The notes under the pieces are model-generated. The model worked only from the letters and a program-made list of their open reading frames with translations, had not been told where the DNA came from and made no database searches. 64,000 nt of DNA from Squalus acanthias (taxonomy: Eukaryota), in contig CM059431.1 of the NCBI GenBank assembly GCA_030390025.1, forward strand, positions 97,714,001-97,778,000. Direction: 5' to 3'. Numbering within the stretch: position 1 is the stretch's first letter; each line of letters begins with the position of its first letter. Shown in pieces: positions 1-48,339 of this stretch. Position numbers and translations under genes: made by a program.

Positions 1-3000
1 GTGCTGTTGGGGAGGGTTTAAACTAAAGTGGCAGGGGGTTGGGAACCTGAGCAGGGAGACAGAGGAAAGGGAAACAAGGATAAAAGCTAAAGACAGGAAG
101 GAGAAAAACAAAAGTAGAAGGCAAAGAACTCAACGGTTTAAATCAAACATGGTCACAGTAAATAATAATTCATATAGGTCTGAGAGCGTTAAAAAAACAA
201 GCCTGAAGGCTTTGTGTCTTAATGCAAGGAGCATTCGGAACAAGGTGGATGAATTAGCTGCGCAAATAGAGGTAAATGAATACGATTTGATTGGGATTAC
301 AGAAACATGGCTCCAGGGTGGCCAAGGCTGGGAACTCAACATCCAGGGTTATTCAATATTTAGGAAAGATAGGCAAAAAAGAAAAGGAGGTGGGGTAGCA
401 TTGCTGGTTAAAGAGGGGATTAACACAATTGAAAGGAAGGATATTAGCTCTGATGATGCGGAATCTGTATGGGTAGAACTGAGAAATAACAAGGGGCAGA
501 AAATGTTAGTGGGAGTGGTATATAGACCTCCAAACAGTAATACGGAGGTTGGGGATGGCATTAAAAGGGAAATTAGAGAAGCATGCAGTAAGGGCACAGC
601 AGTCATCATGGGTGACTTTAATTTACATATAGATTGGACTAACCAAATTAGTAAAAATACTGTGGAGGAGGAATTCCTAAAATGTTTACGAGATGGTTTT
701 CTGGAACAATATGTCGAGGAACCAACCAGAGATCAGGCCATCTTAGACTGGGTATTATGTAATGAGAAAGGATTAATTAGCAATCTTGTTGTACGAGGCC
801 CCTTGGGTCAGAGTGATCATAATATGATAGAATTCTTCATTAGGATGGAGAGTGAAGTAGTTGAATCAGAGACTAGGGTCCTGAATTTAAATAAAGGAAA
901 CTACGATGGTATGAGGCGCGAATTGGGTAGGATTGATTGGGGAATGTCACTCAAGGGGTTGACGGTGGATAGGCAATGGTAAACATTCAAAGACTGCATG
1001 GATGAACTACAGAATTTGTTCATCCCAGTGTGGCATAAGAATAAAACAAAAAGGGTGACTCAACCGTGGCTAACAAGGGAAATTAGGGATAGCATAAGAT
1101 CCAAGGAGAGGGCATATAAATTGGCCAGAAAAAGCGGTAACCCTGAGGATTGGGAGCAGTTTAGGATTCAACAAAGGAGGACAAAGGGATTAATTAAGAA
1201 GGGGAAAATAGAATATGAAAGTAAGCTTGCTGGGAACATAAAAACTGACTGTAAGTTCTTTTATAGATATGTGAAGAGAAAAAGATTAGTGAAATCAAGT
1301 GTAGGTCCCTTGCAGTCAGAAGCAGGGGAAGTTATAATGGGGAACAAAGAAATGGCAGCCCAATTAAATGCATATTTTGGTTCTGTCTTCACAAAGGAGG
1401 ACACAAATAACCTCCCAGAGATGTTGGAGAACATACGGTCTGATGAAAGGGAGAAACTGAAAGAAATCAGTATTTGCAGGGAAATGGTGTTAGGGAAATT
1501 GACGGTATTGAAGGCCGATAAATCCCCAGGGCCTGATAATCTACATCCTAGGGAACTTAAGGAAGTGGCCCTAGAAATAGTAGATGCATTGCTGATCATC
1601 TTCCAACATTCGATGGAATCTGGAACTGTACCCATGGATTGGAGGGTAGCCAATGTTACCCCACTATTCAAAAAGGGTGGTAGAGAGAAAGCGGGGAATT
1701 ACAGACTGGTAAGCCTGACATCGGTATTGGGGAAAATGCTAGAGTCCATTATAAAGGATGTAATAGCTGAGCACTTGAAAAACAGTGACAGGATCGGACA
1801 AAGTCAACATGGATTTACAAAAGGTAAATCGTGCTTGACTAATCTACTGGAATTTTTTGAGGCTGTAACTGGGAAAATAGATAAGGGAGAACCAGTAGAT
1901 GTGGTGTATTTGGACTTTCAAAAGGCTTTCGATAAGGTCCCGCATAAGAGATTAGCGTGTAAAGTTAAGGCACATGGGATTGGGGACAAGGTATTGACTT
2001 GGATAGATAACTGGTTGGTGGACAGAAAGCAGAGAGTAGGAATTAATGGGTCTTTTTCCGAGTGGCAAGCAGTGACTAGTGGGGTACCGCAGGGATCGGT
2101 CCTTGGACCCCAGCTATTCACAATATACATTAATGATCTAGATAAGGGAACTAAATGTAATATCTCCAAGTTTGCAGATGACACAAAGCTGGGTGGGAGT
2201 GTGTGCTGTGAGGAGGATAACGAGAAACTCCAGGATGATTTGGACAGGTTGGGTGAGTGGGCAGAAGCGTGGCAGATGCAATATAACGTGGATAAGTGCG
2301 ATGGTTATCCACTTTGGTGTCAAAAACAGAAAGGCAGACTATTATCTGAATGGCAATAGATTGGGAGAAGGGGAAGTGCAACGAGACCTAGGTGTCCTTG
2401 TGCACCAGTCGCTGAAAGTAAGCATGCAGGTGCAGCAGGCGGTGAAGAAGGCAAATGGTATGTTGGCCTTCATAGCGAAAGGGTTTGAGTATAGCAACAG
2501 AGATGTCCTGCTGCAGTTGTACAGGGCCTTGGTGAGACCACACCTTGAGTACTGTGTGCAGTTTTGGTCGCCTTATCTGAGGAAGGATGTTCTTGCCATG
2601 GAAGGAGTTCAGCGAAGATTCACAAGGCTGATACCTGGGATGGCAGGAATGACATATGAGGAGAGATTGGGTCGATTGGGCTTATACTCACTGGAGTATA
2701 GAAGAATGAGAGGGGCTCTCATCGAAACATATAAAATTCTGACAGGTCTGGACAAACTAGATGCAGGAAGAATGTTCCCGATGGTCGGAGAGTCCAGAAC
2801 CAGGGGTCATAATCTACGGATAACGGGTGAACCATTTAGGACAGAAATGAGGAAGAATTTCTTCACCCAGAGAGTGGTGAATCTGTGGAATTCTCTACCA
2901 CAGAAGGTAGTTGAGGCGAAGTCATTAAATATATTCAAGAATGAGTTAGATATATTTCTTAAAGCTAAAGGTATCAAGGGATATGGGGAGAAGGCAGGTA

Positions 3001-3110
3001 CAGGGTACTGAGTTTGAATGATCAGCCATGATCTCATCGAATGGCGGAGCAGGCTCGAGGGGCCGAATGGCCTACTCCTGCTCCTATCTTCTATGTTTCT
3101 ATGTTTCTAT
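1..3110 (+). mobile_element. CR1 LINE family A: end of ORF1 plus near-complete ORF2 (APE endonuclease + RT), disrupted by a stop at 980-982 and a frameshift near 2300
   Basis: ORFs 149-982, 998-2359 and 2172-3011 carry APE motifs (ITETW, GDFN, SDH) and RT motifs (GVPQGSVLGP, FADD); 3' stem-loop and (TCTATGTT)n tail. Confidence 0.95.
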
Positions 3111-3607
3111 ATACCAGAAGCAAAGGGAAACATTTATTTCCTTTCCTCCTGGACATCAGGTTTGGACGAAGACCAGCCGTGGCAGCAGCAGAACCATGAA
3201 CGGCAGCAGCAGAACCATGAACAACAGCACCACCAGCAGCAGCAGCATCAACAGGAGTGCCAAGCTGCTGCTCACCCACCTGAAGCTGCACAGGCCAGAA
3301 GGCGCCAGCGCGCGACCACATTGCTGCCCGGGATGCAAGGGACGCACTTGGCCAGATTTGTTAGCCTGCACAATCAAACACTTTTGCCTCACACCTTCTC
3401 ATCAGACCATCGACAATGGCCAAGATCCTGCGGACCACCATACTGACAATTGCAAGTCATCCTAAGCCCTCAATGTGGAAGTCCCATTTGCGAAATGACA
3501 GATGCCACAACTTCAGCAATTTGCCAGCAGAATTTTTTATCACACCAAGCAAGTGCTGGCATTTTAAGATTAAACACAACATTACACCCAAGTGACTACC
3601 CTTGTGA

Positions 3608-6600
3608 CTACTTGTGCATTATTTTTCTTTTACGCGTGCTCCTACGTGGTGCTTCCCCTGTGGCTTCAGCAGATGTGGAGGCCCCTTGCTCACTTTCTTG
3701 CTGCTCCTGCCTCGACACCTTTGGCGGGCGTCCTCTGGGGTTGCGAACCTGTGAGGGCTCGGCAACAGTCTGCTGCTCCTGTGGCTGTGCAGGGGTTGAG
3801 ACGCCGATCTCAGTTGGGTGGGGACTCTGGTGGGGCTCTGACCGAGGGCTCTGCAGTGGCATGGAAGTGTGAGCGCTTGGAGAGGAGCCCCCACTTCCTT
3901 CAAAAAAATAACAAAAAGATTGATTAAGAAAGGGAAGATAGATTATGAAAGTAAATTAGCAAAAAATATAAAAACAGATAGTAAGAGTTTTTATAGTTAT
4001 ATAAAAAGAAAAAGGGTGGCTAAAGTAAATGTTGGTCCCTTAGAGGATGAGACCGGGAAATTAATGGTGGGAAATATGGAGATGGCAAAAACACTGAATG
4101 AATATTTTGTATCAGTCTTTACAGTAGAGGACACTAAGAATATCCCAACACTGGACAAACAGGGGGCTATAGGGGGAGAGGAGCTAAACACGATCAAAAT
4201 CACTAAGGAAGTGGTACTCGGTAAAATAATGGGACTCAAGGCGGATAAATCACCTGGACCTGATGGCTTACATCCTAGAGTCTTGAAGGAAGTGGCGGTA
4301 GGGATTGTAGATGCATTGGTAATAATTTTTCAAAACTCCCTGGATTCCGCTAAGGTCCCGGCAGACTGGAAAACTGCTAATGTAACACCCTTATTTAAAA
4401 AGGGCAGTAGACAGAAGGCTGGTAACTATAGACCGGTTAGCCTAACATCTGTGGTAGGTAAAATTTTGGAGTCCATTATTAAGGAAACAGTAACAGGACA
4501 TTTGGATAATCATAATTTAATAGGACAAAGTCAGCATGGTTTTACGAAGGGGAAGTCATGTTTGACAAATTTGCTGGAGTTCTTTGAGGAAGTAACATAT
4601 AGAGTGGATAAAGGGGAACCAGTGGACGTAGTGTATTTAGACTTCCAAAAGGCATTTGACAAGGTGCCACACAAAAGATTATTGCTTAAGGTAAAAAATC
4701 ACGGAATTGGGGGTAATATTCTGGCATGGATAGAGGATTGGCTATCTAACAGAAAGCAAAGAGTTGGGATAAATGGTTCATTCTCAGACTGGCAATCAGT
4801 AACTAGTGGTGTTCCACAGGGGTCAGTGCTGGGTCCCCAACTCTTCACAATCTATATTAACGATTTGGAGGAAGGGACCAAGTGTAACATATCAAAATTT
4901 GCAGATGATACAAAGATGGGAGGGAAAGTAGTGAGTGAGGAGGACATAAAAAACCTGCAAGGGGACATAGACAGGCTAAGTAAGTGGGCAGAGATTTGGC
5001 AGATGGAATACAACACTGGAAAGTGTGAGGTGATGCACTTTGGCAGGAAAAATCCTAGAGCAATTTATTATCTTAATGGCAAGAAACTGGAGAGTACTGA
5101 AGTGCAAAGGGATCTGGGGGTCCTGGTGCACGAAACTCAAAAGGTTAGTATGCAGGTGCAGCAAGTGATTAAGAAGGCAAATGGGATGTTGGCTTTCATT
5201 GCTAGGGGGATAGAATATAAAAATAGGGAGGTATTGCTTCAGTTGTACAAGGTATTGGTGAGACCGCACCTGGAATACTGCATACAGTTTTGGTGTCCTT
5301 ACTTAAGGAAAGACATCCTTGCTCTCGAGGCAGTGCAAAAAAGGTTCACTCGGTTAATCCCGGGGATGAGGGGGTGGTCATATGAGGAGAGGTTGGGTAG
5401 ATTGGGACTCTACTCATTGGAGTTCAGAAGAATGAGAGGCGATCTTATTGAAACATATAAGATTGTGAAGGGGTTGGATCGGGTGGATGCGGGGAGGATG
5501 TTCCCGATGACGGGTGAGACGAGAACTAGGGGACATAGTCTTAGAATAAGGGGCTGCTCTTTCAAAACTGAGATGAGGAGGAACTACTTCACTCAGAGGG
5601 TGGTAGGTCCATGGAATATGCTGCCACAAAAAGCTGTAGAAGCTACAACATTAATTAAATTTAAAACAGAAATAGACAGTTTCCTAGAAGTAAAGGGCAT
5701 TAAGGGTTACGGGGAGCGGGCAGGAATTTGGACATGAGTCTAGGTTCGGATCGGTCATGGCCCTGTGGGTAGTGGAGCGGGCCCAGGGACTGTGTAGCCT
5801 GATTCTGCTCCTATTTCGTGTGTGCAATTCTGTTAGATGCAGGAGATGGTTCTGTGATAGATAGTAGATTGGCGGTTAGGATCAGATCAGCCATGATCTT
5901 ATTGAATGGCGGAGCAGGCTCGAGGGGCCGATTGGCCTACTCCTGCTCCTATTTCTTATGTTCTTATGTTCTTATGTCTGCCACCAACTTCCCTCTCATG
6001 GGTCAGGTCCACCTCAGCGCTTGCAAGTGGCTTGAGAGCACCTTGCTGCACATCAGGGGGGCCATGGGGACCCGTCTCTGCACTGGCAGTCCTACTCAGA
6101 AGGACTTCCATGAAGCTTTGGTTTCTCTGTTCAATAGCTGACCATCGCTCCTCCAGAGATGTCAGTCTATTCTGAACACTCACCATGTTTTCCTCACTCC
6201 AGCGACTTACTGCCTCCATGGCCGTAGCCAGCCTTTCCACGGAGGTTGCCATCCTTTCCATGGTGCTGCGTTCATGCGCCAACGCCTCCACAAAGGCTCT
6301 GCTCATGTTAGCGAGGGACTCCTCCATTCGCTCCACACTCGCAGCTACCCCAGAGACAAAACCTGCCAGAGACTCCTGCACCTGTTCCTGGAGTTCCAAC
6401 ACCGCTGTTCTATCTGGATGGACCCGGAGGCACAGGGTCGACATGCAGCTGAGCCGCGCTGGCAGAGTCCTGCGCCCTCCGACGAGGACTCTCCACTGCT
6501 GTCCCTGTCTCCACCATCTGCTGATGCTCACTTGTGAGCTGTGATTTACCAGGTGACAACACTACTCTATCTCGCGAGGGTCCCACCGAGGTGTGAGTGT

Positions 6601-7929: not shown

Positions 7930-10900
7930 CACCGGGGCTAAAAGGGTTAAAGGGAGGACAGGTTGCATAGACTAGGCTTGTATTCCCTTGAATATAAAAG
8001 ATTAAGGGGCTAAAGCAGTTCGGGAGGATTTAAACTAATATGGCAGGGGAATGGGAACCTATGTAGCGAAACAGGGGGAAGTAATATGCAGTCAGAAACA
8101 AATGTTAGAAGGGTGAGAAACAATAGGGGAAGGCCGAGTAAACAAAGGCAAGAAACACAAAGGGCCATACTAAATCATAAGTCTAAAAGGACAAAGGATG
8201 TTAATAAAACAAGCCTAAAGGCTCTGTGTCTTAATGCAAGGAGTATCCGTAATAAGGTGGATGAATTGACTGTGCAAATAGATGTTAACGGATACGATGT
8301 GATTGGGATTACAGAGACGTGGCTCCAGAACAATCAAGGCTGGGAACTGAACATCCAGGGGTATTCAACATTCAGAAAGGATAGAATAAAAGGAAAAGGG
8401 GGTGGGGTAGCATTGCTGGTTAAAGAGGAGATTAATGCAATAGCTAGGAAGGACATCAGCTTGGAGGATGTGGAATCAATATGGGTTGAGCTGCAGAACA
8501 CCAAAGGGCAGAAAACGTTAGTGGGAGTTGTGTACAGACCTCCAAACAGCAGTAGTGAGGTGGGGGAGGGTATGAAACAGGAAATCAGAGGTGCGTGCAA
8601 AAAAGGCACGGCAGTTATCATGGGTGACTTTAATATGCATATAGATTGGGCTACTCAAACTGGAAGCAATACGGTGGAGGAGGATTTCCTGGAGTGTTTA
8701 AGGGATGGTTTCCTAAACCAATATGTTGAGGAACCAACTAGAGGGGAGGCCATCCTGGACTGGGTGTTGTGTAATGAGGAAGGACTAATCAGCAATCTTG
8801 TGGTACAAGGCCCCCTGGGGAAGAGTGACCATAGTATGGTGGAGTTCTACATTAGGATGGAGAAGGAAACAGTTAAGTCAGAGACCATGGTCCAGAACTT
8901 AAATAAGGGCAACTTTGAGGGTATGAGGCGTGAATTGGCGAGGTTAAATTGGCAAGCGATATTTAAGGGGCTATCAGTGGAAGGGCAATGGCAGACATTT
9001 AGATATCGCATGGATGAACTACAACAATTGTACATCCCGGTCTGGCGTAAAAATAAAAAAGGGAAGGTGGCTCAACCATGGCTAACAAGGGAAATCAGGG
9101 ATAGTATTAAAACCAAGGAAGTTGCATACAAATTGGCCAGAAGTAGCAGCAAACCCGGGGACTGGGAGAACTTCAAAACTCAGCAGAGGAGGACGAAGGG
9201 TTTGATTAGGGCAGGGAAAATAAAATATGAAAGGAAGCTTGCAGAGAACATTAAAATGGACTGCAAAAGCTTCTATAAATATGTAAAAAGAAAGAGGTTA
9301 GTAAAAACAAACGTAGGTGCCCTGCAGTCGGAAACAGGGGAAGTCGTAATGGGGAACAAGGAAATGGCAGATCAATTGAACAAGTACTTTGGTTCGGTGT
9401 TTACTGTGGAGGACACAAACAACCTGCCGGAAATAAAAGGGGTCAGAGGATCTGGTAAGAGGGAGGAGCTGAGGGAAATCCTTATTAGTCGGGAAAAGGT
9501 ATTGGGGAAATTGATGGGACTGAAGGCTGAAAAATCCCCGGGGCCTGATGGTCTGCATCCCAGGTACTTAAGGAGGTGGCCTTGGAAATAGTGGATGCAT
9601 TGACGATCATTTTCCAACATTCCTTAGACTCTGGATCAGTTCCGATGGAGTGGAGGGTGGCCAATGTAACCCCTCTTTTTAAAAAAGGAGGGAGGGAGAA
9701 AGCAGGGAACTATAGACCGGTCAGCCTGACATCGGTCGTGGGTAAAATGATGGAAGCAATTATTAAAGATGTCATAACAGACCATTTGGAAAGTGGCGAC
9801 ATGATAGGTCCAAGTCAGCATGGATTTGTGAAAGGGAAATCATGCTTGACAAATCTTCTGGAATTTTTTGAGGATGTTTCCAATAGGGTGGACAGGGGGG
9901 AACCAGTAGATGTGGTGTATTTGGACTTTCAGAAGGCCTTCGACAAGGTCCCACACAAGAGATTGGTGAGCAAAGTTAAAGCACATGGGATTGGGGGTAA
10001 TGTGTTGACGTGGATTGAGAACTGGTTGGCACACAGGAAACAAAGAGTAGGAGTAAATGGGTACTTTTCAGAATGGCAGGCAGTGACCAGCGGGGTACCG
10101 CAGGGTTCGGTGCTGGGACCCCAGCTGTTTACATTATATATTAATGATTTGGACGAAGGGATTAAATGTAATATCTCCAAATTTGCGGATGACACTAAAT
10201 TGGGAGGCAGTGTGAACAATGAGGAGGATGCTAGGAGGCTACAGAGTGACTTGGACAGGTTGGATGAATGGGCAAATGTATGGCAGATGAAGTACAATGT
10301 GGATAAATGTGAGGTTATCCACTTCGGTGGTAAAAATAGAGAGGCGGACTATTACCTGAATGGTGGCAGATTAGGGAAAGGGGAGGTGCAACGAGACCTG
10401 GGCGTCATGGTACATCAGTCACTGAAGGTGGGAATGCAAGTGCAGCAGGCAGTCAAGAAAGCAAACGGAATGATGGCCTTCATAGTAAGGGGATTTGAGT
10501 ACAGGAGTAGGGAGGTGATGCTGCAGTTGTACAGGGCCTTGGTGAGGCCACACCTGGAGTATTGTGCGCAGTTTTGGTCTCCTAACTTAAGGAAGGACAT
10601 TCTTGCTATTGAGGGAGTGCAGCGAAGGTTCACTAGATTGATTCCTGTGATGGCCGGACTGACATATCAAGAAAGATTGGGTCAACTGAACTTGTATCCT
10701 CTGGAGTTCAGAAGAATGAGGGGGGATCTTATAGAGACATTTAAAATCCTGACTGGTTTAGACAAATTAGATGCCGGCAGAATGTTCCCAATGTTAGGGA
10801 AAACTAGAACCAGGGGTCACAGTCTAAGGATTAAGGGGAAGCCATTTAAGACTGAGCTGAGGAGGAACTTCTTCACCCAGAGAGTGGTGAATCTATGGAA

Positions 10901-11490
10901 TTCTCTTCCACAAAAGGTTGTTGAGGCCAGTTCGCTAAATATATTCAAAAGGGAGTTAGATATAATACTCACAACTAGGGGGATCAAGGGGTATGGCGAG
11001 AAAGCAGGAATGGGGTACTGAGGTAGCATGTTCAGCCATGAACGCATTGAATGGCGGTGCAGGCTCGAAGGACCGAATGGTCTACTCCTGTACCTATTTT
11101 CTATGTTTCTATGTTTCTATGATTGAAATGAGATGTTTAAGATGATTAAAGGAGTTGACAGGGTAGATAGAAACTATTTCCTCTGGTGGGGGGAGTCCAG
11201 AACAAGGGGGCATAACCTTAAAATTAGAGCCAGGCCGTTCAGGGGTGATGTCAGGAAGCACTTCTTCACACAAAGGGTGGTGGAAATCTGGAACTCTCTC
11301 CCCAAAAATCTGTTGAGGCTGGTGGTCAACTGAAAATTTCAAAACTGAGATTGATAGATTTTTGTTGGCTAAGGTTATTAAGGGTCATGGAACCAAGGTG
11401 GGTAGATGGAGTTAAGATACAGATCAGCCATGATCTAATTGAATGGCGGAACAGGCTCGAGGAGTTGAATGGCCTCCTCCTGTTCCTATC
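7930..11490 (+). mobile_element. Old CR1 3' fragment (about 7930-8008 and 11121-11490) split by CR1-C
   Basis: Decayed RT C-terminal sequence on both sides of the CR1-C insertion; ORF 11133-11333. Confidence 0.65.
8009..11120 (+). mobile_element. CR1 LINE family C, full ORF2 with one frameshift near 9563, plus last ORF1 codons
   Basis: ORFs 8086-9591 and 9576-11021 give APE + RT; (TCTATGTT)n tail. Confidence 0.95.
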
Positions 11491-11815
11491 ACTTCTACTA
11501 ATGCTATTGTGGATAGACGAGTCTGTGACGGGTAGATTGGTGAGGACGAGGTTGAGTAAGTTACTTCCTTGTTAGTTCCTTCACTACCAAGCCCAGTCTG
11601 GCAGCCACGTCCTTCAGGACTCGGCCAGCCTGGTCAGTGGTGGTATCACTGAGCTACTCTTGGTGTTAGACATTGAAGTCCCCTATTGCGAGTACATTCT
11701 TTGCCCTAGTTTCCCTCAGCGTTTCCTCCAAGTGATGTTCAACATGAAGGAATACAGATTCATCAGTTGAGGGGTGTAGTCGGTGCTGATAGCAGAATGT
11801 TCCCTTGACCTTGTT
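11490..11815 (-). mobile_element. Decayed fragment of Crack/Daphne-like LINE (APE region)
   Basis: Reverse complement resembles 21700-21990. Confidence 0.6.
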
Positions 11816-41881: not shown

Positions 41882-44259
41882 GAATTAGTCCAGTGACCCT
41901 CCTCTGCACCCTTTCCAAAGCCTCAATATCACCCACCATGTGAGGAGACCAAAACTGGACACAGTTTTCCAAGTGCAGCCTGACTAAGGTCTTGTACAAG
42001 GACAAAATAGTATACCTCGTCTTGTACTCAATTGTCCCATGGATACACCCCAAAGCCCTATTTGCTCTAGGTATTGCTTCACGGCATTGCTCATTTACCT
42101 TTGAGGATGTATGCACTCGAATGCCCAAATCTCTTTCTATCTCTACCTTTAATGCTTTTCCCTGAGGGGTGTATGAATGTTGAGCATTTGCCATGCCCAC
42201 ATGCATAACACTGCACTTATTGAAGTTATACATCATTTGCCAGTCATGAGCCCAATCTCCCAACTCATTAAGATCTGCCTGAAGCAGATGAGTGTTGTCT
42301 ACAGTCCTAATACTTGCACAGATCTTGGTATCATCTGCTCCCGACACCTATGTCCAGATCATTAATAAAAATAGTAAAGAGCAACGGTCCCAACACTGAT
42401 CCCTGTGGGACTGGTGACCGGTCTCCAAACAGATCCAAATCCATCTGTAACTACTTTTTACCTATGTCCTGCCAGCCAGTTCTCAATCCAGCTCAATATA
42501 TTACCACTAATACCTGAGGCTTCGATCTTATAGAGAAGCCTCTTATGCGGTACTTTATCAAAAGCTTTTTGGAAGTCTTAAGTAGACAATGTCTACTGGA
42601 CTTCCCTCATCCACCAACTTTGTAACTTCAAAAAAGTTAGATTTGTAAGACATGATCTTTTTATGAAGCCATGTTGGGTGTCCCTAATGACCCTCTCTAT
42701 CCAAGCATTCATATATTGAGTCCCTCAAGCATCTTGCCTATTACTGATGTTAAACTAATGCGCCTATAGTTACCCGTGTCTGTCTTGTCACCTTTTTTAA
42801 AGATGGGGACTACATTAGCCTCCTTCCAGTCTATAGGAGCCATTCCAGAGTGCAGTGAGCTATTAAAAAATACAGGCTAGGGGCTCGCACAGCAGATGTC
42901 CCATCTCGCTGAGGACCCTCGGGTGGATATCATCCAGCCTGGCTGCTCTATCTATTTTCAAGTTCTTAATTCTTTCTAAAACAATATATTCATCTATGTT
43001 AATATTACTAGTTTTGTTAGTAACATTATTAGATTCTAATAGTCGAGCATCATCTTCAAGGGTGAAGACCGATGCAAAGTACTCATTTAATATTTCCGCC
43101 ATACCCAGTGAGTCCTTTGTAACCTGCCCTTGAACACCCTTCAATGGCCCAATGCAGTCTTTGACAGTTCTCTGACTCTTCACATAACAGAAAAGCTTTT
43201 CCCATTACTTCTACAGTTGTCTAGGATCCTCTTTTCCATTCGCCTTTTTACTGATCTAATAGCAGCCTTTGTTTTCTTTAGTTGTTCCTTGTACTCAACT
43301 CTGTTTAGTTGAGTATTAAATGTCTTTAATTTATGGAAACGTTTCCATCTTATTTGTCTTTGTACAGAACCGGTCAGCTACCTTGGCTTTTTATTACCAC
43401 ATTTCCTCCTTTTGACTTTGGCTACATAGTTGTTTGCAACATTTTTATCTTCTTAAAAACTTTCCATTTGTATTCTACATCAGTCTGATCACCACCCAGT
43501 AGGGTTAGCCAATTTACCCGTTCCAAATCATCTGCCATTTTTGTGACTTTTGCTCTTCTGAAATCTGCTACAAGTTGCAGGTTCTCGGCACCTTTTGGTC
43601 TACCAGCCAATTGGAACCATATGTTGGGGTTACTGTTGGCCAAATGTTCCCCCACATTGAGGCCCGATATGAGATCAGGCTCACTACTAAACACTCGATC
43701 CAATATATGATTATCCCTAGTTACTTCATTAACATGTTGAGTCAGAAAACAGTCTTGTATATTTTCGACAATTTTTTCAGCTGCACTGCACCAGAACAGA
43801 AGGTAAACCATCATGCCACTGAATGCCAGGAAAATTAAAATCACCCATCAAACAAATGTGGCATTTTATATTCAAAGCATTTGCAATCTGTTTCCATAAT
43901 AACTCATTATGTTCAGGTGTCTGACCCGGGGTCTATAACAATTACTGATAATTAATCCCTGCCCGTGAGCTTGGTTCACTTGAACCCAGATAGCCTCAGC
44001 TGTACCTGATGAGGCAATATCAAGTCTTTCTCTAGCTCTTAGATTCTCATCAAAATAGCAACCCCAACTCCCCTTTGACCTTCTCTATCCTATCCGAATC
44101 CCTTGTAGCCCTTTAGGTGCATTTCTGTCCCATCACGTTCATCTAGCCATGTCTCAGAAACACACAATATGGCTAATCTCTCCAACACAGTGTAGAATTG
44201 CAGTTCTAACTATTTGTTTCTAACATTCCTTGTATTTACATAAAAACAATTTAACGTCT

Positions 44260-47200
44260 CATAGAAACATAGAAGATAGGAGCAGGAGTAGGCCATTCGG
44301 CCCCTCGAGCCTGCTCCGCCATTTAATGAGATCATGGCTGATCATCCAAACTCAGTACCCTGTACCTGCCTTCTCCCCATATCCCTTGATACCTTTAGCT
44401 TTAAGAAATATATCTAACTCATTCTTGAATATATTTAATGACTTGGCCTCAACTACCTTCTGTGGTAGAGAATGCCACAGGTTCACCACTCTCTGGGTGA
44501 AGAAATTCTTCCTCATTTCTGTCCTAAATGGCTTACCCCTTATCCTTAGATTATGACCCCTGGTTCTGGACTCTCCCACCATCGGGAACATTCTTCCTGC
44601 ATCTAGTTTGTCCAGACCTGTCAGAATTTTATGTTTCGATGAGATCCCCTCTCATTCTTCTATACTCCAGCGAGTATAAGCCCAATCTCTCCTCATATGT
44701 CATTCCTGCCATCCCAGGTATCAGCCTTGTGAATCTTCGCTGAACTCCCTCCATGGCAAGAACATCCTTCCTCAGATAAGGCGACCAAAACTGCACACAA
44801 TACTCAAGGTGTGGTCTCACCAAGGCCCTGTACAACTGCAGCAGGACATCCCTGTTCCTATACTCAAACCCTTTCGCTATGAAGGCCAACATACCATTTG
44901 CCTTCTTCACCGCCTGCTGCACCTGCATGCTTACCTTCAGCGACTGGTGCACAAGGACACCCAGGTCTCGTTGCACTTCCCCTTCTCCCAATCTATTGCC
45001 ATTCAGATAATAGTCTGCCTTTCTGTTTTTGACACCAAAGTGGATAACCTCGCATTTATCCACGTTATATTGCATCTGCCATGCTTCTGCCCACTCACCC
45101 AACCTGTCCAAATCATCCTGGAGTTTCTCGGTATCCTCCTCGCAGCACACACTCCCACCCAGCTTTGTGTCATCTGCAAACTTGGAGATATTACATTTAG
45201 TTCTCTTATCTAGATCATTAATGTATATTGTGAATAGCTGGGGTCCAAGGACCGATCCCTGCGGTACCCCACTAGTCACTGCTTGCCACTCGGAAAAAGA
45301 CCCATTAATTCCTACTCTTTGCTTTCTGTCCGCCAACCAGTTCTCTATCCAAGTCAATACCGTGCCCCCAATCCCATGTGCCTTAACTTTACACGCTAAT
45401 CTCTTATGCGGGACCTTATCGAAAGCCTTTTGAAAGTCCAAATACACCACATCTACTGGTTCTCCTTTATCTATTTTCCCAGTTACATCCTCAAAAAATT
45501 CCAGTAGATTAGTCAAGCACGATTTACCTTTTGTAAATCCATGTTGACTTTGTCCGATCCTGTCACTGTTTTTCAAGTGCTCAGCTATTACATCCTTTAT
45601 AATGGACTCTAGCATTTTCCCCACTACCGATGTCAGGCTTACCGGTCAGTAATTCCCCGCTTTCTCTCTACCACCCTTTTTGAATAGTGGGGTAACATTA
45701 GCTACCCTCCAATCCATGGGTACAGTTCCAGATTCCATCGAATGTTGGACGATGATCAGCAATGCATCTACTATTTCTAGGGCCACTTCCTTAAGTACCC
45801 TAGGATGTAGATTATCAGGCCCTGGGAATTTATCGGCCTTCAATCCCGTCAATTTCCCTAACACCATTTCCCTGCAAATACTGATTTCTTTCAGTTCCTC
45901 CCTTTCATCAGACCGTATGTTCTCCAACATCTCTGGGAGGTTATTTGTGTCCTCCTTTGTGAAGACAGAACCAAAATATGCATTTAATTGGGCTGCCATT
46001 TCTTTGTTCCCCATTATAACTTGCCCCGCTTCTGACTGCAAGGGACCTACACTTGATTTCACTAATCTTTTTCTCTTCACATATCTATAAAAACTCTTAG
46101 TCAGTTTTTATGTTCCTTGCAAGCTTACTTTCATATTCTATTTTCCCCTTCTTAATTAATCCCTTTGTCCTCCTTTGTTGAATCCTAAACTGCTCCCAAT
46201 CCTCAGGGTTACCGCTTTTTCTGGCCAATTTATATGCCCTCTCCTTGGATCTTATGCTATCCCTAATTTCCCTTGTTAGCCACGGTTGAGTCACCCTTTT
46301 TGTTTTATTCTTATGCCACACTGGGATGAACAAATTCTGTAGTTCATCCATGCAGTCTTTGAATGTTTGCCATTGCCTATCCACCGTCAACCCTTTGAGT
46401 GACATTCCCCAATCAATCCTACCCAATTCGTGCCTCATACCATCGTAGTTTCCTTTATTTAAATTCAGGACCCTAGTCTCTGATTCAACTACTTCACTCT
46501 CCATCTTAATGAAGAATTCTATCATATTATGATCACTCTGACCCAAGGGGCCTCGTACAACAAGATTGCTAATTAATCCTTTCTCGTTACATAATACCCA
46601 GTCTAAGATGGCCTGATCTCTGGTTGGTTCCTCGACACATTGTTCCAGAAAACCATCCCGTAAACATTCTAGGAATTCCTCCTCCACAGTATTTTTACTA
46701 ATTTGGTTAGCCCAATTTATATGTAAATTAAAGTCACCCATGATGACTGCTGTGCCCTTACTGCATGCTTCTCTAATTTCCCTTTTAATGCCATCCCCAA
46801 CCTCCGTATTACTGTTTGGAGGTCTATATACCACTCCCACTAACGTTTTCCGCCCCTTGTTATTTCTCAGTTCTACCCATACAGATTCCGCATCATCAGA
46901 GTTAATATCCTTCCTTTCAATTGTGTTAATCCCCTTTTTAACCAGCAATGCTACCCCACCTCCCTTTCTTTTTTGCCTATCTTTCCTAAATATTGAATAC
47001 CCCTGGATGTTGAGTTCCCAGCCTTGGCCACCCTGGAGCCATGTTTCTGTAATCCCAATCAAATCGTATTCATTTACCTCTATTTGCGCAGCTAATTCAT
47101 CCACCTTGTTCCGAATGCTCCTTGCATTAAGACACAAAGCCTTCAGGCTTGTTTTTTTTAACGCTCTCAGACCTATATGAATTATTATTTACTGTGACCA

Positions 47201-47323
47201 TGTTTGATTTAAACCGTTGAGTTCTTTGCCTTCTACTTTTGTTTTTCTCCTTCCTGTCTTTTGCTTTTATCCTTGTTTCCCTTTCCTCTGTCTCCCTGCT
47301 CAGGTTCCCAACCCCCTGCCACT
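44260..47323 (-). mobile_element. CR1 family A copy, full ORF2 with small indels
   Basis: ORFs 46097-47137, 45646-46080, 44629-45624, 44352-44591; near-identical to 1-3110. Confidence 0.95.
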
Positions 47324-48339
47324 TAGTTATTTATTCTTGTATGCTTCCTACCTGGTTTAACTGCATGCTTAGAATCTATGCAATGATTAAGGTCAGTAAA
47401 GCTATCTTTGAACATATCTCCACTATCCCCATGCTGAATTAGTTTAACTGCTTTCTGAAAGCAAGCTCAACACCATCAGCCAGCCTTTGTGCTCCCAGGA
47501 AGTTAAGATGGCGGCCGTCCCTCCTAAACAACTTAGCTTGCCCAGCGAACACCTCCTAATTATCGATGAAGTGGAGCCGCTTCTTTTTGCAAAGGTCCCG
47601 AAGCCAGCTATTGAATCCTACGATTCGGCTATTCCTCTCCAGCGATCTGGACACGACTGGTAATAGCCTGGAGACTACTACCCTTGCACCCCTTTGCTGA
47701 AGGTCAGCTATGAGGCCTTTGTAGGAATCCTACAAAACAAATGGATTTCTATCCATTATATCATTAGTACCAATATGTAAATCTACTACAGTACCTTGGC
47801 ACTCACCTTTCATCAGATCATCCACACAGTCCCGGAGATCAGCTTCCTTGGCCCCTGAAGGACAAGACTGCTCTTGACAGAGCCTTGCCTCTACACAGGG
47901 TGCTGTCTGTATCCCTGATGATAGAATCCTTTATGAGGATTGCTCGCTGCCTCTTGCTCTTCCTTGGCTGTTCACCCAACGATGTCCTCTTGAACTTTGC
48001 AGCCTTCCCCTTACCTTTTCCAATATGTTTATATGAGTGAGCATTGAGGGTGATCAGTCTCACTGGGGCTGACCTCACTGCCTGTTGTGTCCTCCAATAG
48101 CTGCATGTCTTCTGGTTCTACCATCACTGTCCATTTCAAAATCGTATCCAAATACACTACATCCAATCCTCTTTTTTTATAATTTAAAAAGTTTGTCGTC
48201 ATATCTCTCAGCCTATTTCCCTCCACAAAGAATAATCCTAAGGTTTGGAGCCTAGTCTTGTAAATAAATAAATAAAATCTAAGTTTAAGGGACATCTTTG
48301 TCCTCTTTTGCACCCTCTAGAACCTCAATATCAGATTCA

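Follow-up and report, generated by a model that had tools for sequence, protein, structure and literature searches.

We analysed a stretch of 64,000 nucleotides (nt) of Squalus acanthias DNA (assembly GCA_030390025.1, contig CM059431.1, positions 97,714,001 to 97,778,000 of the forward strand; hereafter the window), which self-comparison resolves into a mosaic of copies of CR1-type long interspersed nuclear elements (LINEs). At the junction between the first and second open reading frames (ORF1 and ORF2) of these elements, a UUUAAAC heptamer in phase with ORF1 is followed directly by the ORF1 stop codon and then by a run of G residues, and the sequences compared here indicate that this cassette is an ancient, selected feature of the CR1-group ORF1/ORF2 junction. 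We posit that it is most likely a -1 ribosomal frameshift site that would give an ORF1-ORF2 fusion protein, a reading to which we assign a probability of roughly 0.55. Sharks, reptiles and birds have CR1-group LINEs as their dominant retrotransposons, and the translation of ORF2 from bicistronic LINE RNA is a long-standing question that has been studied almost only in human L1 and silkworm SART1.

The ORF1/ORF2 junction in the window

Three of the copies in the window, here called A, C and E, include the ORF1/ORF2 junction (Table 1), and the heptamer and stop are found at all three. Copy A reads GCT GTT GGG GAG GGT TTA AAC TAA over positions 3-26, copy C reads GAT TTA AAC TAA, and the old and degenerate element E reads CAG TTA AAC TAA at 47451-47439 on the minus strand, confirming both the coordinates and the sequences given in a preliminary description of this DNA, which had proposed a slippery heptamer directly before the stop in each. 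The -1 frames that it had read from these sites (FKLKWQGVGNL in A, FKLIWQGNGNL in C and VKLIQHGD in E) were recovered as well, and in A and C ORF2 does lie in that frame, open from the heptamer and with ATGs at 149 and 8086. The -1 frame of A is open from the window start to 982 and that of C lies within a stop-to-stop ORF at 8014..9591, while the -1 frame of E is open for just 41 codons because it is interrupted by a nested A-family copy, A2, inserted 110 nt past the ORF1 stop of E. The sequence beyond this point, previously taken as the continuation of E, is in fact A2, and the phase of E's -1 frame relative to E's endonuclease can be fixed no better than to one base. Placement rather than number distinguishes the motif: TTAAACTRR has six matches in the window against 2.63 expected, a count reached by 4 of 100 shuffled sequences (not significant), and the heptamer with its stop occupies 3/3 ORF1/ORF2 junctions. 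A fourth TTAAACTAA at 42750-42758 (+), inside the degenerate ORF2 of E, is neither preceded by an ORF1 nor followed by a G-run and is taken as a chance match.

Only the last 7-8 codons of ORF1 are visible in the window for A and C, and the SGNH/GDSL esterase domain of ORF1 was read in E and in a distant relative, L011 (see below). The ORF1 frame of A, which had been proposed from a few codons, is correct, since its upstream continuation matches the C-termini of shark and ray esterase ORF1 proteins. Specifically, in contigs of related organisms covering positions 1-420, the consensus of loose contig ends before place 4 of A (19 contigs, agreement 0.78), read by eye in the same frame, extends ORF1 upstream as ..TNILAGRFAS.VGEGLN*, and this extension resembles the esterase ORF1 C-termini ..GTNILAGKFASAARGGLN and ..FASAVGEELN found with E's ORF1 as query. 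In E itself, the heptamer ends an esterase ORF1 as previously stated, with PF13472 (E 1.1e-10) detected despite two in-frame stops and a frameshift, and with protein alignments running to the end of the frame: eight ORF1 proteins searched by tblastn match a single ORF1 in the window, that of E, with alignments reaching 47442-47454, and shark and ray ORF1 proteins align up to 47442. Among the best 150 of 873 ORF1 relatives, 24 end in N, including 12 in LN and 6 in GN, and the named proteins ending in LN come from electric ray, skate and sawshark.

A separate clade of esterase ORF1 proteins (P0045, P0085, P0094, P0114, P0141, P0149) ends in ..QGN or ..SGN, and two further proteins (P0143 and P0111) have this end plus one extra residue. 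Such ends, known from the protein alone, would fit a G_GGA_AAC heptamer before the stop; no loci related to the ..QGN group were found in genome contigs. One predicted protein (P0132) joins an endonuclease N-terminus, matching window positions 194-718 and 8197-8439, to an esterase ORF1, and probably stems from nested or rearranged LINE copies rather than from a real fusion. A search for proteins homologous to the N-terminal extension of A, at near and greater lengths, returned none.

Conservation of the cassette among vertebrate CR1 elements

Conservation beyond the window was assessed in the consensus library supplied as a supplement to a 2026 study of CR1-group elements (PMC13343379), using the first 400 letters of each entry and reading rows, codons and phases by eye and by hand. 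TTTAAAC plus a stop ends ORF1 in 17 CR1 consensus sequences from 11 species (alligator, crocodile, bearded dragon, bullfrog, coelacanth, bowfin, elephant shark, stingray, sawfish, catshark and dogfish), and these make up 17 of the 23 motif matches: six of eight matches to TTTAAACTAA, ten of 12 to TTTAAACTAG and one of three to TTTAAACTGA lie at a CR1 ORF1 end, and GGGAAACTAA has no match in the library. Seven of the nine matches to GGGGGATGGG fall in CR1 entries, and all seven lie just 3' of the heptamer and stop. Two of the 12 alligator CR1 rows reach the ORF1 end within 400 letters and both carry the motif; the junction is visible in 4 of the 22 catshark CR1 rows and the heptamer is present in all four, two of which start inside it and one of which has TGT for the stop. 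The same motif and stop in 17 consensus sequences from 11 species, together with their occurrence in the distant element represented by L011 and L012 and with the substitution pattern, G-run and within-family constancy described below, make a chance origin very unlikely. Some full-length shark CR1 consensus sequences (dogfish CR1-18 and CR1-3, white shark CR1-14, catshark CR1-12) also match TTTAAACTAA, TTTAAACTAG or GTTAAACTAA in their AT-rich 5' untranslated regions, about 100-150 nt ahead of the ORF1 start codon, and all three library matches to GTTAAACTAA are in 5' regions.

The pattern of substitution indicates what is being conserved. The identity of the junction stop varies among TAA, TAG and TGA, and the codon before TTA may be GCT (10), GGT (4), GAT (2), CTT (2), TAT (one family) or TGT (1), encoding six different amino acids for some of which any third base would be synonymous. 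The third base of this codon is nevertheless T in 20 of 21 sequences, the exception being CAG in the decayed copy E, and synonymous alternatives to TTA and AAC never appear in the sequences read. A run of four to six G residues begins 9-10 nt past the heptamer in most sequences, and in the shark and ray families TGG CAG GGG .. GGG AAC behind the stop keeps its third positions as well. Because codon third bases are fixed while the stop and the preceding amino acid vary, the constraint is on nucleotides and not on the peptide, and a T at heptamer position 1 across such varied codons fits tandem -1 slippage on X_XXY_YYZ. The conserved peptide previously noted upstream of the first ATG is found over the first 11 codons, where third positions are invariant and conservation is at the nucleotide level, and does not extend beyond them. 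A comparison of consensus sequences across vertebrates, suggested at the same time, bears out the conservation of heptamer and stop and does not bear out a universally open -1 frame for ORF2.

Variation within the A family follows the same boundary. In contigs from three related organisms, together with a possible RNA run, no variant with a share of at least 10% was found at places 1-49 among the rows listed, compared with 22 variable places at 50-190; there were no common indels among these rows, and loose ends show that the linkers of other subfamilies depart from A only after places 44-47. Identity between the two copies A and C is 85% over the segment that runs from heptamer to GNL, 59-64% in the linker and 84% at the start of the endonuclease. 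The anatomy of the cassette, its phasing and its conservation are in this respect direct observations. Contig depth across the junction peaks at bins 15-56, a measure that cannot rank parts and that was not used as evidence.

Openness of the -1 frame and a distant CR1-like element

Read by hand, catshark CR1-1a and dogfish CR1-6c have a stop-free -1 frame that runs from the heptamer into the endonuclease, and sawfish CR1-7 (32 codons) and crocodile CR1-3a (30 codons) have one over the part that is visible. Two alternative linkers, recovered as loose ends at places 47 and 44, are open in -1 only, over 30 letters.

A scan of prokaryote assemblies with a distant ORF1 group yielded two copies of a CR1-like LINE, L011 and L012. 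Their ORF1 encodes an SH3 and an esterase domain (PF13472 in L011) and ends in TAT TTA AAC TAG TTGGGCAGGGGGG, the same cassette. From the heptamer onwards L012 is open in -1 (ORF 3190..4731), and no in-frame ATG precedes its endonuclease catalytic motif CLNARS; an AUG-independent route to ORF2 is therefore needed there. In L011 both ORFs are open (418 and 937 codons). The two copies differ by 1.5% with a dN/dS of about 0.8, and each has five private ORF1 amino-acid changes relative to a third family member.

The element is present as a single copy per assembly in two assemblies. L011 (1952-6017) and L012 are 10-15 kb or less from the ends of contigs that carry the labels of Gammaproteobacteria and Methylococcales metagenome-assembled genomes, and in L011 another reverse-transcriptase ORF adjoins the LINE; this looks like host DNA joined to symbiont contigs and not like bacterial sequence. 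Searching 301 genomes of the order of genome G001 for the L011/L012 junction gave short chance matches only, and no loci related to ORF1 or the endonuclease were found in viral contigs. In metagenomes the junction pattern returned 10 loci, all of them chance matches without similarity to the element.

Evidence that weighs against a frameshift fusion

Several observations count against a -1 fusion, beginning with the frame itself. When the T-poor linker is shuffled by dinucleotides, the -1 frame upstream of the first ATG stays free of stops in 20% of cases for A and 36% for C, and its openness is not significant. Nor does the linker carry a coding signature between A and C: differences fall 12/12/17 by codon position, without an indel, and comprise 37 non-synonymous against 4 synonymous changes. 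Phasing among relatives is mixed. Hand reading puts the endonuclease of alligator 1b and bearded dragon 2 in +1 and that of bowfin 1 in frame 0; the -1 frame soon meets a stop in elephant shark 1b, dogfish 17a and 22, alligator 6a, crocodile 7b and stingray 6b; catshark 13 reads TGT in place of the stop; and in catshark 14 every frame contains stops and there is a separate ATG. The last of these and catshark 1b, which starts at the heptamer, are taken as ORF1-less derivatives. Lower-case letters are abundant in most of the rows that do not fit, and as such rows show all three phases they were not trusted for phasing, nor were they counted as support. L011 has one T fewer than L012, so that its ORF2 falls in +1 and its -1 frame meets a stop after 13 codons; given the neutral decay of both copies, the derived T-run may be that of L011 or that of L012. 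Retention of the motif with ORF2 outside the -1 frame, named at the outset as an outcome contrary to frameshifting, was encountered in L011 and in several consensus sequences, and an ORF2 open in -1 from the shift site is missing from a dozen consensus sequences of uncertain quality. A TAATG overlap of stop and start, in the ORF2 frame, is moreover present in catshark CR1-1a and in dogfish CR1-6c and 17a.

The RNA downstream of the heptamer adds to these points. The 60 and 100 nt after the heptamer were folded and compared with shuffled sequences, a test whose scope is local structure as distinct from pseudoknots and long-range pairing. No fold better than the shuffles was obtained for A, C, E, L011 or L012, with z-scores between -1.4 and +1.2 (60 and 100 nt respectively: A, -1.1 and -0.3; C, -0.5 and +1.2; E, -1.4 and -0.1; L012, +0.3 and +0.6; L011, -0.1). 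Folding that allows for G-quadruplexes was inconsistent, giving a two-layer quadruplex in A and none in C or E. The tract behind the stop, described previously as G-rich and hairpin-capable, is G-rich indeed and folds no better than shuffled sequence, and a hairpin or G-quadruplex stimulator is unsupported by these comparisons. The absence of a predicted stimulator and the inconsistent phasing among relatives together weaken the case for frameshifting.

If the site works, its stimulator would not be a classical pseudoknot or hairpin, and the candidates are the adjacent stop and the G-run at about +10 nt. One class of 3' stimulators is reported to begin at a distance of 12-15 nt from the shift site, may consist of linear RNA and works with trans-acting factors (PMC5009743). 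The spacing of the CR1 G-run is close to that of this class and was counted for frameshifting.

Proposed mechanism and alternative explanations

Our proposal is that the cassette comprises U_UUA_AAC phased with ORF1, the adjacent ORF1 stop and a G-run mostly 9-10 nt further on. The majority of ribosomes would terminate and release the ORF1 protein, and a minority would slip back by one base as the Leu and Asn tRNAs pair anew with UUU AAA. Slipped ribosomes would then read CUA... in -1, through the poorly conserved basic linker and into the endonuclease and reverse transcriptase, so that the product would be an ORF1-ORF2 fusion following Gag-Pol logic, and the adjacent stop, the G-run or both would stimulate slippage in place of a pseudoknot. 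Slippage, its efficiency and the role of the stimulator are what we infer here. The fusion had already been suggested in the preliminary description; deep conservation of heptamer, stop and G-run speaks for that suggestion, and the lack of structure and the mixed phase of ORF2 speak against it.

The main rival is termination-coupled reinitiation, whereby a fraction of the terminated ribosomes would resume at a nearby AUG or non-AUG codon and make a separate ORF2 protein, the conserved block acting as a signal for ribosome retention or repositioning; such resumption is reported for SART1 (UAAUG) and human L1. This is the accepted model for LINE ORF2 according to reviews (PMC3894237, PMC2881922), and the TAATG overlaps noted above fit it. 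In six of seven shark and ray families the fourth -1 codon is ATG or one change away from it (AAG, ATA, ATG, ATG, GTG and ATT, the exception being GTT), which suggests an ancestral UAAUG. A start beyond the 1-nt indel that separates L011 and L012, which lies upstream of a common in-frame TTG, would tolerate both states, and consensus sequences with -1 stops still retain the block. Set against this, reinitiation leaves unexplained why TTTAAAC, including its synonymous T, is fixed while the stop varies. The ATG is also missing in most lineages: no UAAUG is present in the window, where the junction is TAAAG in A, TAATA in C and TAATT in E, and crocodilians have TAGGT and a lizard TGAGT. Copy C has three out-of-frame ATGs ahead of its ORF2 ATG, and the lack of an ATG before the endonuclease motif of L012 also counts against the model, which we regard as unlikely, though the most serious competitor.

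A role outside recoding is less probable again. Here the block would be the boundary of ORF1-less elements, an internal promoter with a TATA-like TTTAAA, or a packaging or template-switch site, and the frames would be incidental. Several 5' ends fall inside the heptamer, namely those of A2 (47328), catshark CR1-1b (at TTTAAAC) and CR1-14 (at TAAAC), and copy C begins 25-30 nt upstream of it; conservation at the level of nucleotides and not of peptide is also as expected, and ORF1(+) and ORF1(-) forms of these elements have been described (PMC13343379). Random 5' truncation of an element of 4-5 kb would not place ends at the junction this often, and their clustering may reflect ORF1-less subfamilies, template switching at this point or transcripts that start internally. 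The conserved core, however, is exactly a phased X_XXY_YYZ plus an in-frame stop of varying identity, and a promoter or binding site is not expected to hold a stop in phase while its letters vary. A site where many molecules start was not seen either, a weak point as it comes from contig data only. Another form of recoding at the stop, either an antizyme-like +1 shift at the AAC-stop or bypassing from AAC to a downstream in-frame AAC, seems very improbable. ORF2 is in +1 and open up to the heptamer in L011 and two hand-read consensus sequences, in-frame AAC codons lie downstream in A, C and L011/L012 (candidate landing codons at 44-46 in A and 3240-3242 in L011), and a hop across the gap would tolerate the L011/L012 indel. 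In-frame Asn codons are nonetheless common by chance, the well-supported shark families are in -1 and not +1, and the conserved UUU and UUA would be left without a reason. To our knowledge, bypassing has not been established for cytoplasmic eukaryotic ribosomes, which counts against that variant.

Frameshifting in -1 best fits the sequence evidence in that no rival appears to account for the phased heptamer together with its synonymous first position. A fuller version of the frameshift reading, which we hold only tentatively, is that a cassette older than the split of sharks and tetrapods makes a CR1 esterase-ORF2 fusion without a pseudoknot, stimulated by the stop, by linear G-rich RNA bound by a factor, or by both.

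Layout of the window

The features of the copies that carry the junction, and of A2, are given in Table 1.

Table 1. Coordinates of CR1 copies and junction features in the 64,000-nt window
Feature	Position	Strand	Remarks
Copy A	1 to about 3110	+	ORF1 cut off by window start
Copy A ORF1, final seven codons (AVGEGLN)	3..23	+	Translation; resembles C-termini of P0009, P0010, P0062
Copy A heptamer T_TTA_AAC, in phase with ORF1	17..23	+	
Copy A ORF1 stop TAA, immediately 3' of heptamer	24..26	+	
Copy A G-rich conserved block TGGCAGGGGGTTGGGAACC	29..47	+	G5 run begins 10 nt past heptamer
Copy A basic linker, fast-evolving, ORF2 (-1) frame	50..193	+	First in-frame ATG 149-151
Copy A ORF2 endonuclease domain to first in-frame stop	194..982	+	PF03372, E 1.5e-13
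Copy C	about 8005-11122	+	78% identical to A
Copy C 5'-truncated ORF1 end (..KAVREDLN)	8005..8038	+	Heptamer 8029-8035, stop TAA 8036-8038
Copy C G-rich conserved block TGGCAGGGGAATGGGAACC	8041..8059	+	
Copy C first ORF2-frame ATG	8086..8088	+	Out-of-frame ATGs earlier at 8040, 8051, 8062
Element E esterase ORF1, C-terminal part	47442..47798	-	PF13472; tblastn with ORF1 proteins; heptamer G_TTA_AAC 47448-47442
Element E ORF1 stop TAA	47439..47441	-	
Element E linker	47329..47438	-	-1 frame open (VKLIQHGDSGDMFKD...); G-run 47430-47427; in-frame ATG 47415-47413
Copy A2, A-family, nested in E	44260..47328	-	97.4% identity to A 21-3100
Element E endonuclease part of ORF2, degenerate	43422..44259	-	Resumes after A2

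The PF03372 and PF00078 domains were detected in both A and C, with the reverse transcriptase of A (PF00078) lying within 983-2359. The 3' ends of A, C and A2 consist of (T)TTCTATG repeats and have no poly(A) tail, short direct repeats in place of poly(A) being a hallmark of CR1. The truncation point of copy C, approximately 25-30 nt before its heptamer, falls within an older CR1 3' fragment (7950-8004 plus 11123-11500) that copy C interrupts and that reads ..RLRG / DLIEM..; in its frame the two flanks read ..LGLYSLEYKRLRG and ..IEMRCLR.., and the target lacks about 7 nt. Directly past the 3' end of copy A, positions 3185-3260 are CAG/CAA-rich and contain the unit GGCAGCAGCAGAACCATGAAC twice.

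Significance and comparison with known systems

Frameshifting at the CR1 junction is undescribed in the open literature searched; early subscription papers on CR1 (Haas 1997, Kajikawa 1997, Poulter 1999, Kapitonov and Jurka 2003) fall outside that scope and may give the phase of the ORFs. The first 300,000 characters of a review of frameshifting (PMC5009743) do not contain 'CR1' and mention only HeT-A, TART and L1 among elements without long terminal repeats (non-LTR elements). In the available parts, 'frameshift' is absent from a review of non-LTR protein biogenesis (PMC3894237), a review of non-LTR elements (PMC2881922) and papers on esterase ORF1 (PMC3905857), ORF1 diversity (PMC4120745) and amniote CR1 lineages (PMC4316615), as are 'frameshift', 'overlap' and 'slippery' from the paper behind the consensus library (PMC13343379). 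If true, the frameshift reading would provide a Gag-Pol-like answer to the question of ORF2 translation for a very large CR1 family extending from cartilaginous fish to crocodilians, and in its fuller version would make CR1 the first vertebrate non-LTR element with a frameshift fusion of the Gag-Pol kind, one that relies on a stimulator of a new type; should the G-run be that stimulator, a structure-poor class of eukaryotic frameshift signal would be added. An ORF1-ORF2 fusion protein would be predicted, and the 60-nt cassette is directly testable in a reporter. For annotation, the start of ORF2 in CR1 elements should not be assumed to be the first ATG.

The junction resembles that of nidovirus ORF1a and ORF1b, where the coronavirus heptamer U_UUA_AAC is that of CR1, is likewise phased with the upstream frame and is followed by an enzyme-encoding ORF in -1. 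The arterivirus frameshift heptamer is G_UUA_AAC. U_UUA_AAC also serves as a -1 site in eukaryotes (PMC5009743; PMC8499926). Nidoviruses differ in having a pseudoknot 5-7 nt downstream, whereas no structure is predicted in CR1 and the G-run lies about 10 nt away, and they are RNA viruses, while in CR1, a genomic LINE, the 0-frame stop is always adjacent. A likeness in spacing is offered by arterivirus nsp2TF and cardiovirus 2A, whose stimulators lie 10-15 nt from the shift site and need no stable fold (PMC5009743); these use a C-rich motif or a stem-loop plus a viral protein, in contrast to the G-rich motif of CR1.

Among non-LTR elements, SART1, with its UAAUG coupling, and human L1 have bicistronic LINE RNAs in which translation of ORF2 depends on that of ORF1 (PMC3894237, PMC2881922), and UAAUG is present in two shark CR1 families, but most CR1 lineages are without an overlapping AUG, and the slippery heptamer is a feature of CR1 and not of those two elements. 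A precedent for frameshifting in a non-LTR retrotransposon exists in the gag of Drosophila HeT-A (PMC5009743), an insect telomeric element in which the shift lies within gag and does not join ORF1 to a reverse transcriptase. In its proposed logic the CR1 junction is like the Gag-Pol arrangement of retroviruses and LTR elements, with an abundant first protein, a rare fusion to reverse transcriptase and a ratio of the two set by frameshift efficiency, as reported for an avian retrovirus (PMC11835228). It departs from Gag-Pol in that the first protein of CR1 is an SGNH esterase, the element is non-LTR and the fusion is predicted from sequence.

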